From Chloroflexota bacterium (GTDB lineage: Bacteria; Chloroflexota; Dormibacteria; DASZGP01), in assembly GCA_034666405.1 (NCBI GenBank), contig JAXDLW010000047.1:79579-143578 (forward strand): DNA of 64,000 nt, given 5' to 3'. The translations under genes were made by a program, and so were the position numbers. Below, piece by piece: positions 58,747 to 60,147 of this stretch. How positions within the stretch are numbered: position 1 is the stretch's first letter; each line of letters opens with the position of its first letter. A model generated the notes under the pieces. The model did no database searches. It was given only the letters and a program-made list of their open reading frames with translations, and was not told where the DNA came from.

Positions 58747-60147
58747 CTAGGTGCGCTCGAGCAGGAAGTAGGTGGAGCAGGCCCGGTCCAGCAGTTCCTT
58801 GCTGAGGTTGGCCGGCTGACCCAGGTATGCCGCGATCTCCTTGACGTGGGCGAGGATGTCGCGCGGGTGCACCCCGCGAGGGCTGCGCGAGCGGTAGTAC
58901 TTGCCCAGGATGTAGTAGGCCGAGGCCTCGCCACCCGCCAGGCCCATCCTGTCCGCCTCGCGGACGAAGATCTCCTTGAACTCCTCGGGCGTGGGGTCGG
59001 GGATGTTGATCTTGTAGCGAATACGGCGCAGGAATGCCTCGTCCACCAGCTCGGAAGGGTCCAGGTTGGTGGAGAAGAAGATCAGCATCCCGAAGGGCAC
59101 CTCGATCTTCTTGCCGACCACCGCCATGTTGAGGTAGTCGACCCCCTCCTCGAGGGGGACGATGAAGCGGTTGAGCAGCTTGCGGGGCGAGACGTCCTGG
59201 CGGCCGAAGTCGTCGACGAGGAAGATGCCGCAGTTGGCCTTCATCTGCAGGCCGGCCTCGTAGAACTTGAAGGCGGGCTGCCAGACCAGGTCGAGCATCG
59301 ACAGGTCGAGCTCGCCACCGACCTGGACGAAGGGACGCCGGCAGCGCACCCAGCGCTGGTCGGCCTCCGCCACGGGTGGGCCGACGGGCTCGTGGTGGCT
59401 GGGGTCGTAGAGCCGGATGACGGCGTCATCGACCGCCAGCGCGTAGGGCATGAATACCGATCCGCCAAGCAGGGTCTGGGCGGCGCGGGAGATCGAGCTC
59501 TTGCCGTTGCCGGGGTGCCCGTAGAGGAACACGCTGCTGCGCGAGTTGAAGGCCGGCCCCAGGACCTCCATGGTCTCGTCGCTGAGGACCAGGCCCGCCA
59601 GGGTGCCCTTGAGGGCGTCCCGGGTGGCGAAATTCTCCGGCAGACCCTGCGCGGCCACCGACGCGTTGTACTCGCGCAGGGGCACCGGGGCCGGGCCCAT
59701 GTACTGGTTGCGATCGAGGATCTCGCGGGCGCGCTCCCGGCCCGACTCGGTGATCATGTACGCCAGCCCCTCCTCCAGGGTCTCGAGGCGGCGTTCCGGG
59801 CGGGCGCCCTGGCCGATCGACTGGATCAGCGAGTTGTTGGCCAGCTGGGCGATGACCGGGTGGATGCACTCGTAGTCCAGCCGCAGCCTGGTGGCGATCT
59901 CGTGCGCGGGCAGCTGGGTGCTGAAGTGCATCAGCTTCAGGATCAGGTCGCTTACGAAGGTCGCCGAGAGGCCGGTCTGCTGGAGGGTGCGCGGGCGCGG
60001 AGGCATGAAGCCGCCGGCGACGTCCGCAGGCGGACCCACAACCTGCTCCATTTCCAGGGGCGGTTCTACTGGGGGCGCAGGCGGGGAAACCCCGTTGTCC
60101 TGGGCGCCCTCGCTCGCCTCTATCGAGGCATTTTCAAGCTGGGCCAC
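58747..60147 (-). CDS. AAA+ ATPase of the ChlI/MCM/MoxR clade with an N-terminal winged-helix-like domain
   Basis: Walker A [11 protein letters not shown], Walker B [10 protein letters not shown], sensor/arginine-finger region [20 protein letters not shown]. N-terminal ~130 aa wHTH-like ([21 protein letters not shown]). Confidence 0.7.
   Translation of the reverse strand: [466 protein letters not shown]

Follow-up and report, generated by a model that had tools for sequence, protein, structure and literature searches.

Introduction

The closest structural relative of the ATPase described here is Q8U0N8 of Pyrococcus furiosus (PDB 8p49), an uncharacterised homohexamer whose structure was drawn from an oligomer atlas on account of lacking a known function, and which informs the assembly state and not the role. 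The ATPase module also resembles that of archaeal LonB (Thermococcus onnurineus, PDB 4zpx and 3k1j). The protein itself has 466 amino acids (aa), joins an N-terminal winged helix-turn-helix (wHTH) to an AAA+ ATPase, and is encoded at 58747-60147 on the minus strand of a 64,000-nucleotide (nt) stretch of contig JAXDLW010000047.1 from a bacterium of the Dormibacteria, which as a whole is referred to as the window. We found homologues of it inside Tad/Flp operons. The published Tad model (PMC6668835) is without such an ATPase component, and the rhizobial and Myxococcus Tad papers make no mention of a wHTH-AAA+ ATPase. The Myxococcus paper reports that FHA proteins are unusually abundant around the Tad-like Kil system, which parallels the FHA fusions that we observed in the wHTH-AAA+ family.

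An initial annotation, made from the sequence alone, had presented the gene as an orphan ATPase of the ChlI/MCM clade, had linked it to an adjacent PrpD-family gene and had hinted at a defence context. This interpretation was partly supported by our analysis, in that the orphan status was upheld, whereas neither the placement in the clade nor the link to PrpD nor the hint at defence was.

A large family outside the curated libraries

The open reading frame (ORF) was listed exactly as annotated initially, with 466 aa at 58747-60147 (minus strand), and is complete, with a GTG start and the stop codon at 58747-58749. Its best homologue was matched with E = 8e-278 and 94% identity, and an exact-sequence lookup of the protein gave no record. 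The ORF is a real gene encoding an intact AAA+ protein. The GC content of the window is 65-74%, with no local compositional anomaly, and a paralogue was not found elsewhere in the 64 kb. An antisense open frame of 1,251 aa (58156-61911, plus strand) spans the ATPase gene, the small ORF and the MFS gene next to it, and has an Arg/Gly/Ala/Pro-rich translation; we read this frame as the usual high-GC artefact and not as a gene.

In the curated families of Pfam, NCBIfam, PADLOC and PHROGs nothing scored above cut-off for the ATPase, well-characterised families included, so that the description as an orphan and poorly characterised wHTH-AAA+ protein held. The best Pfam scores were 19.6 bits for AAA_16 (cut-off 32.6) and 16.5 bits for bpMoxR (cut-off 27); PF00004 stayed under its cut-off as well, and there was no MIT domain. 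In NCBIfam, IteA (NF042959) reached 18 bits against 510 and LonB (TIGR00764) 15 bits against about 516-517. The PADLOC IetA matches (E = 1e-6) spanned just 28-40 residues at the P-loop, and the PHROGs matches were to three families of unknown function. Among the 44 members of our alignment (A1), Pfam matches were obtained to AAA_16 (34), bpMoxR (23), AAA (17), Mg_chelatase (15), AAA_5 (13) and Sigma54_activat (9), the best Pfam E-values of the other members being only 1e-5 to 1e-9.

At E ≤ 1e-3 the family comprises at least 7,970 proteins in a 90%-identity collection, and 2,922 representatives were counted in a 50%-identity library, 599 of them at E ≤ 1e-30. The homologues carry source labels such as 'ATP-binding protein', 'predicted ATPase with chaperone activity' and occasionally 'PadR family regulator'. 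The closest relatives, at 77-82% identity, bear the labels Candidatus Dormibacteraeota or Dormibacteria, which makes that phylum the most likely source of the window; more distant members come from Chloroflexota, Myxococcota, Armatimonadota, Obscuribacterales and Alpha- and Betaproteobacteria. Across these phyla, from Dormibacterota to Burkholderia, 60 positions are near-invariant. The ATPase is a typical representative of its bacterial family, which is very large, unnamed and outside the curated libraries. No characterised member was found in the literature on Q8U0N8, wHTH-AAA+-FHA proteins, MarR-like AAA+ proteins, Tad with AAA+, or LonB without protease; the ESCRT/Vps4 and MoxR-vWA literature was considered as a description of the family and set aside, as it concerns different systems.

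In a neighbour-joining tree the Tad-embedded proteobacterial proteins occupied the deepest branches and the CpaF-linked members were scattered through a Chloroflexota/Myxococcota clade. The window ATPase fell apart from both, in an expansion that is mainly Dormibacterial and comprises three or more paralogous sub-branches.

Association with Tad/Flp pilus and signalling genes

The Tad/Flp pilus machinery, and especially its CpaF motor, is the sole gene context of the family that recurs across phyla, together with phospho-Ser/Thr and two-component modules. A tblastn search against plasmids and chromids gave 76 records with full-length homologues (31-38% identity, 89% coverage), mostly from Rhizobium and also from Sinorhizobium, Ensifer, Burkholderia, Paraburkholderia, Salipiger, Pseudorhodobacter and Photobacterium. 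On p42e of R. etli CFN42 the homologue RHE_RS25680 ('ATPase AAA') comes after the genes for secretin, TadE/G, response-regulator/CpaE, L,D-transpeptidase, CpaF, TadB and TadC. The operon of Burkholderia pyrrocinia starts with three Flp pilins and later encodes secretin, TadG, TadE, a TadZ-like ATPase, CpaF and TadB; here the homologue sits between prepilin peptidase and CpaB, amid the structural tad genes. The Salipiger homologue adjoins TadC on the opposite strand. Overall, complete Tad operons with a homologue within or next to them were seen in Rhizobium, Ensifer, Sinorhizobium, Salipiger, Pseudorhodobacter and Burkholderia. When proteobacterial loci were searched with probes, CpaF and TadB were found beside the homologue in seven out of seven and TadC in five. 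Adjacency to tad genes was thereby seen in all seven proteobacterial replicon loci and not for the window copy.

At the alphaproteobacterial loci L088 (3877-5579) and L090 (13733-15465), CpaE/TadZ is annotated as a response-regulator fusion and an L,D-transpeptidase is encoded between CpaE and CpaF. These operons seem to represent a Tad subtype of their own, found together with the wHTH-AAA+ gene.

A clear CpaF, with 46-52% identity to R. etli CpaF in strict tblastn, was present in five of the 80 genome loci; a looser CpaF cluster of ten loci had included other P-loop proteins. At the Chloroflexota loci L006, L025 (Roseiflexus), L039 and L059 (Herpetosiphonaceae) the CpaF gene lies 11-67 nt downstream of the ATPase gene on the same strand, and TadB and TadC were not detected there with the proteobacterial probes. 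This two-gene wHTH-AAA+/CpaF module hints at a direct partnership between both ATPases. Within the 64-kb window no CpaF-like sequence was found.

Signalling domains are found both in the family and next to it. Among 30 members with long extensions, four have an N-terminal FHA domain, one a Ser/Thr kinase, one HDOD and one a weak PAS; the contigs with the FHA-fused and kinase-fused members, at 3-6 kb, were too short for their gene contexts to inform. Recurrent neighbours were receiver-domain proteins (directly downstream at eight Chloroflexota loci), FHA-OmpR proteins and Ser/Thr kinases. On a 2.7-Mb contig (L002, 7183-10380), a 56%-identical member shares 4 nt with the receiver-domain gene upstream of it, and an FHA-guanylate cyclase gene comes 49 nt after it, an arrangement that looks like a compact signalling operon. 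Nucleotide second-messenger enzymes were observed within a few genes of the Dormibacterial members at L001, L084, L085 and L087, as PocR-GGDEF or GGDEF proteins and an AAA_16-guanylate cyclase. Taken with the HDOD fusion, such neighbours might point to signalling by cyclic nucleotides. In Anaerolineae the neighbours included GDPD (32 of 81 loci), GT2, RecJ, ClpXP and Obg; as candidate partners these were rejected and read as housekeeping synteny maintained by phylogenetic inertia.

Domain architecture and conservation

An AlphaFold model of the ATPase (predicted local distance difference test (pLDDT) 89.3, predicted template modelling score (pTM) 0.83) was compared with the conservation in the 44-sequence alignment and in a set of 135 sequences including the Tad-embedded proteobacterial members. 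All parts of the protein are encoded on the minus strand. Residues 1-48 (60004-60147) are a disordered, acidic and Pro-rich tail, with pLDDT below 50 for residues 1-21 and 28-44, a net charge of -8 and a mean conservation of 0.12, which means that the tail is not conserved. The following MarR/PadR-type wHTH domain (residues 49-146, 59710-60003) has in the model the H1-beta-H2-H3-beta-wing-beta topology of that fold, an outcome that agrees with the structure check suggested with the initial annotation. The predicted N-terminal winged helix was confirmed in this way, and its size of about 130 aa was not, as the domain covers residues ~49-146 and the first 48 are disordered. It opens with a conserved PxPR(T/S)xEETGL and closes with a Y-x-I-T-x-x-G-R-x-R-A helix. 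Its mean net charge of -1.3 to -1.5 is neutral to acidic family-wide, no conserved basic residue was found in the recognition helix or wing across the alignments, and the MarR dimerisation helices are absent from it. The linker (residues 147-189, 59581-59709) carries a near-invariant N-Q-Y-x-G-P-A-P-V-P-L-x-x-Y-N motif, in which Y149, G151 and P154 are at least 97% identical in the 135 sequences.

The AAA+ alpha/beta core comprises residues 190-385 (58993-59580). Its Walker A or P-loop GHPGNGKS (residues 210-217, 59497-59520), its Walker B (residues 308-317, 59197-59226) and the VPLEEG...DEAFLRRI segment (residues 330-376) lie at the places claimed initially. In the P-loop G210, G213, G215 and K216 are invariant. 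The Walker B has an invariant D312-D313, DD and not DE, followed by an invariant G-R-Q; it is identical in all 44 aligned sequences and at least 97% identical in the 135. Between beta2 and helix alpha2 there is a beta-rich insert (residues 235-299, 59251-59445) with the invariant residues D248, H252, D263-x-R265-W266, R271-P272 and G277-G278-E279-L280. The insert, which lies at the pore-loop position, is acidic (mean charge -3.4), is without a transmembrane segment (maximum hydropathy 1.43) and is more strongly conserved than any other non-catalytic surface, the winged helix included. The residue following the invariant P234 is variable, which leaves no conserved aromatic pore loop after beta2.

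A pre-sensor-1 beta-hairpin (residues 335-352, 59092-59145), the feature of the superclade of that name, was found in the model. Its strands E336-341 and E346-351 lie between alpha3 and beta4 (E355-360, N361) with pLDDT above 85; G345 at the tip is invariant, and in the 44-sequence set the hairpin-tip residues are not conserved and include no conserved basic residues. Sensor-1 T360-N361 and the D-E-A-F-L-R-R-I-R segment (residues 359-377, 59017-59073) form invariant columns, and the family profile aligns this stretch with the second region of homology of spastin/Vps4. R374 and R375 are invariant and are putative trans-acting arginine fingers. The lid (residues 386-466, 58750-58992) consists of four helices (H387-400, H406-417, H427-441 and H450-460). 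Its sensor-2 motif H427-P428-R429-D430 (HPRD) is unchanged in all 44 aligned sequences. In the Tad-embedded branch (proteobacterial loci L088-L094) the Arg gives way to Lys in Rhizobium, Ensifer, Sinorhizobium and Pseudorhodobacter, to Gly in Salipiger and to Ala in Burkholderia; this branch retains the RR pair and the DD-GRQ Walker B. The protein belongs to the AAA+ superfamily, as its alpha/beta core has Walker A, Walker B, sensor-1 and arginine finger and bears a C-terminal helical lid.

Proposed mechanism

We propose with moderate confidence that the ATPase is a hexameric, ATP-dependent switch or remodeller of a protein partner, that the family acts in a Tad and signalling context, and that the window copy is a Dormibacterial stand-alone paralogue. 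By analogy with its closest structural relative, the 8p49 hexamer, the protein would form a hexameric ring, with ATP bound at the subunit interfaces and sensed in trans by R374/R375. Six flexible winged helices would crown the ring, and the cycle would lead to ATP-dependent switching or remodelling of a protein partner and not to DNA reading or processive unfolding. For the Tad-linked members the candidate client would be the CpaF motor or its platform.

A protein-directed switch is favoured because the winged helix is neutral to acidic and has no conserved basic residue in its recognition helix or wing, because the insert at the pore-loop position is acidic, and because neither an aromatic pore-loop residue after beta2 nor the hairpin tip is conserved. 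A Walker B in which Asp has replaced the catalytic Glu would also suit a switch-like role, as this exchange is more typical of slow, switch-like AAA+ ATPases.

More tentatively, and as an idea that we ourselves find doubtful, the family could provide a second ring ATPase of Tad/type IVc pilus machines, which would dock on or remodel the CpaF motor or platform and would receive phospho-threonine input via the FHA/kinase modules, much as in the FHA-rich Kil system of Myxococcus. The stand-alone Dormibacterial and Chloroflexota paralogues, including the window copy, would then have been redeployed onto other clients. ArlH acting on ArlI in the archaellum follows a logic analogous to that of a ring ATPase on CpaF.

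Genes around the ATPase and the PrpD question

The gene downstream of the ATPase encodes a divergent MmgE/PrpD-family protein of 481 aa (57258-58703, minus strand). According to the initial annotation it lay 44 nt away on the same strand; matches to PF03972 (N-domain, 59.7 bits) and PF19305 (C-domain, 32.4 bits; cut-offs 32.1) confirmed the family, and the gap proved to be 43 nt between the ATPase stop and the GTG at 58703. There was no NCBIfam match, and judging from these scores the protein is probably no canonical 2-methylcitrate dehydratase. On the other side of the ATPase gene and on the same strand are a 77-aa ORF (60208-60441) and an MFS transporter gene (60460-61896; Pfam MFS_1, E = 1.4e-29). 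The 77-aa ORF has no Pfam match and is read as a signal peptide, a lipobox-like 'SAGGC' and a Pro-rich tail, so that it may be a small lipoprotein; related contigs carry ORFs of 51-52 aa in its place. The same-strand gaps are 18 nt between the MFS gene and the small ORF, 60 nt between the small ORF and the ATPase gene and 43 nt between the ATPase and PrpD genes, and a four-gene transcription unit is possible. A promoter and terminator scan of the four-gene block (69% GC) was uninformative.

Co-occurrence with PrpD was checked in seven metagenomic contigs with precomputed Pfam context and in the 80 genome loci. For the latter, neighbours were clustered within four genes on each side at 81 loci with a recognisable focal gene, the window included. 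The adjacency expected from the initial annotation turned out to be confined to one lineage: it was found in the window, L001, L084 and L085 only, with ATPases that are 76-83% identical and gaps of 14-210 nt. These four also have in common a block of GGDEF, ATPase, PrpD, DAGK, F420H2-quinone reductase, 4HBT and PGA_cap genes, and the MFS gene upstream of the ATPase is likewise present in L001 and L085. Since the contigs share the whole surrounding block, the ATPase-PrpD pairing most likely reflects recent common ancestry. Relatives at 67% and 66% identity adjoin SecA and YcaO and no PrpD; PrpD was also missing next to the 56%-identical relative, which has the receiver-domain gene and the FHA-guanylate cyclase as neighbours, and next to a 47%-identical relative, which has a class A penicillin-binding protein and an MDMPI-family gene. 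When the neighbour clusters of the genome loci were ranked by recurrence, PrpD was not in the top 25. PrpD was rejected as a functional partner and is regarded as lineage-local synteny.

Some further genes of the window were recorded in passing. The downstream block at 48001-53545 (minus strand) is unrelated to the ATPase; it encodes two proteins with a right-handed beta-helix, one resembling cupredoxin/plastocyanin, one with a weak CHRD domain and the capsule-synthesis protein PGA_cap. Two adjacent Pro/Thr-rich proteins without a Pfam match (55398-56186 and 56337-57203, plus strand) both end in a sortase-signal-like motif, with '...NMPTTG' or '...GLNTG', a hydrophobic stretch and an Arg-rich tail (RRSRS / RRRRAARR). 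A sortase gene is located near the ATPase homologue of the related locus L087.

Alternative explanations

Several points weigh against the proposed switch and its Tad connection. Outside the Proteobacteria the Tad link was seen at only five of the 80 genome loci, and the proteobacterial sample is a plasmid/chromid collection dominated by Rhizobium. At the loci of the Dormibacterial clade with known context, which include the window, CpaF was found in none of 11, and the Tad link may be inapplicable to the window paralogue. The tree was built by simple neighbour joining and carries no support values. We infer the mechanism from the motifs, the arginine pair and a ring-forming structural neighbour; the Walker B Asp may in addition reduce hydrolysis. 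A MarR-type fold is normally DNA-binding, and the recognition helix is mildly basic (+2 or +3) in the Tad-linked Rhizobium and Salipiger members.

The last two points lead to the main rival, an ATP-dependent transcription regulator in which the winged helix, as an N-terminal DNA-binding domain, would bind DNA and the AAA+ ring would couple ATP or phospho-signals to promoters. Such a regulator would resemble bacterial enhancer-binding proteins, except that its DNA-binding domain is N-terminal. Its targets would be the tad operons in Proteobacteria and possibly the MFS/PrpD genes in the window. We consider this explanation realistic, if somewhat unlikely, and give it substantial weight because of the MarR-like fold, the sensory fusions, which mirror those of enhancer-binding proteins, and the mildly basic recognition helices in some proteobacterial members. 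However, a GAFTGA-like motif occurred in none of the 135 sequences, the neutral to acidic winged helix lacks conserved basic residues and the MarR dimerisation helices, and the AAA+ insert is the most conserved surface in place of the winged helix. Moreover, structural tad genes surround the one in Burkholderia. The conserved ring could instead belong to a Lon-like unfoldase or chaperone, which would pull protein substrates through its pore and might pass them on to a protease encoded by another gene. This is improbable, because there is no conserved aromatic-hydrophobic pore loop after beta2 and the hairpin tip is variable; there is also no protease domain and no conserved protease neighbour, Asp stands at the position of the catalytic Glu of Walker B, and the TIGR00764 score is far from its cut-off.

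The four same-strand genes with their short gaps, and the ATPase-PrpD pair retained in three related contigs, would fit an ATPase that serves, for example, as activase, assembly factor or dedicated regulator of the MFS transporter or the PrpD-like enzyme. Such a partnership is very improbable and is largely refuted by the phylogenetic distribution, as the contigs share the entire gene block through recent common ancestry and PrpD is absent beside the relatives at 67%, 66%, 56% and 47% identity. A family that keeps 60 positions almost unchanged from phylum to phylum is also unlikely to serve a partner that a single lineage possesses. We give hardly any credence to an anti-phage or conflict ATPase of the IetA/IteA type or of the MoxR-vWA ternary-system type, although the PADLOC IetA (E = 1e-6, P-loop only) and NF042959 gave weak matches, some members weakly matched bpMoxR and nSTAND, and FHA and kinase domains occur in conflict systems too (PMC7159879). 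The scores were far under the cut-offs (18 against 510 bits for NF042959 and 16.5 against 27 for bpMoxR), and neither an IetS protease nor a vWA partner was present at the seven Pfam-context loci or among the recurrent neighbour clusters, which also speaks against the defence context suggested initially. There were no phage matches, the neighbours are housekeeping genes in DNA of even GC, and the high conservation looks like vertical inheritance. A protein-directed, ATP-dependent switch is the explanation that we favour.

Significance and relation to described systems

One more orphan AAA+ protein is unsurprising; the scale and conservation of the family are noteworthy, given that it has no curated model or name. 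The cross-phylum association of the family with Tad/Flp loci is the most useful by-product of the analysis. As homologues are located inside Tad/Flp operons of culturable and genetically tractable bacteria (R. etli CFN42, Burkholderia), their function is directly testable. If the family does provide a Tad component, it would be a part that present models of the system lack, and Tad pili are important in adhesion, biofilm formation and the colonisation of hosts. The annotation of the window should be corrected to an ATPase that is probably neither of the ChlI/MCM type nor a PrpD partner.

Q8U0N8 comes from an archaeon, is the shorter protein, with about 377 residues in its structure, and has only 13-16% identity to the ATPase; it was absent from the single-sequence PDB search and from the 60 listed profile matches. 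LonB has a Lon protease domain and a transmembrane segment in its insert, both of which the window protein lacks; the latter has an N-terminal winged helix instead, and a Walker B with DD in place of DE. With BchI/ChlI, MCM and MoxR it shares the pre-sensor-1 hairpin, the 'LL..h..PhE-x-G' helix ahead of it and the 'A-N-x-G' lead-in to Walker B, and some family members match Mg_chelatase, AAA_5 and bpMoxR weakly. The initial placement in the ChlI/MCM clade was nevertheless not upheld: the ATPase has no match to Mg_chelatase (PF01078) at E ≤ 0.01, and the matches of 15 of the 44 members are weak (best E = 3.5e-5). The lid appears in the model as four plain helices directly after beta5, which points away from the presensor-2 (PS-II) insert, a feature of ChlI, MCM, MoxR and dynein. 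ChlD (vWA) and ChlH genes were found neither among the genes annotated at 48-64 kb nor in the seven related Pfam-context loci, and the absence of the usual partners was borne out for VWA, Lon-protease and helicase domains in the protein and in the genes of the same 48-64 kb. MoxR-vWA systems are defined in PMC7159879; the ATPase reached 16.5 of the 27 bits for bpMoxR (PF20030), with no vWA gene at the examined loci. It also differs from IetA/IteA, with no partner gene, and from enhancer-binding proteins, with no match to PF00158 and weak matches in nine of the 44 members.

The best PDB sequence-profile matches were to the classic AAA proteins Vps4/spastin (E = 2.5e-7), with which the ATPase shares a G-P-P-G-N-G-K-T P-loop and the 'D-E-A-x-L-R-R-h-x-K-h-x-h-P-x-P' second region of homology with its double arginine. 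Just those two short stretches align, and two features of the model, the pre-sensor-1 hairpin and the large insert that follows beta2, are not known from the classic AAA clade. Compared with MarR/PadR regulators, the protein has a single winged helix, neutral to acidic and without dimerisation helices, that is fused to an AAA+ ring. Compared with the ATPases of the Tad system, it is neither of the PilT/VirB11 type represented by CpaF nor of the ParA/MinD type represented by TadZ/CpaE.

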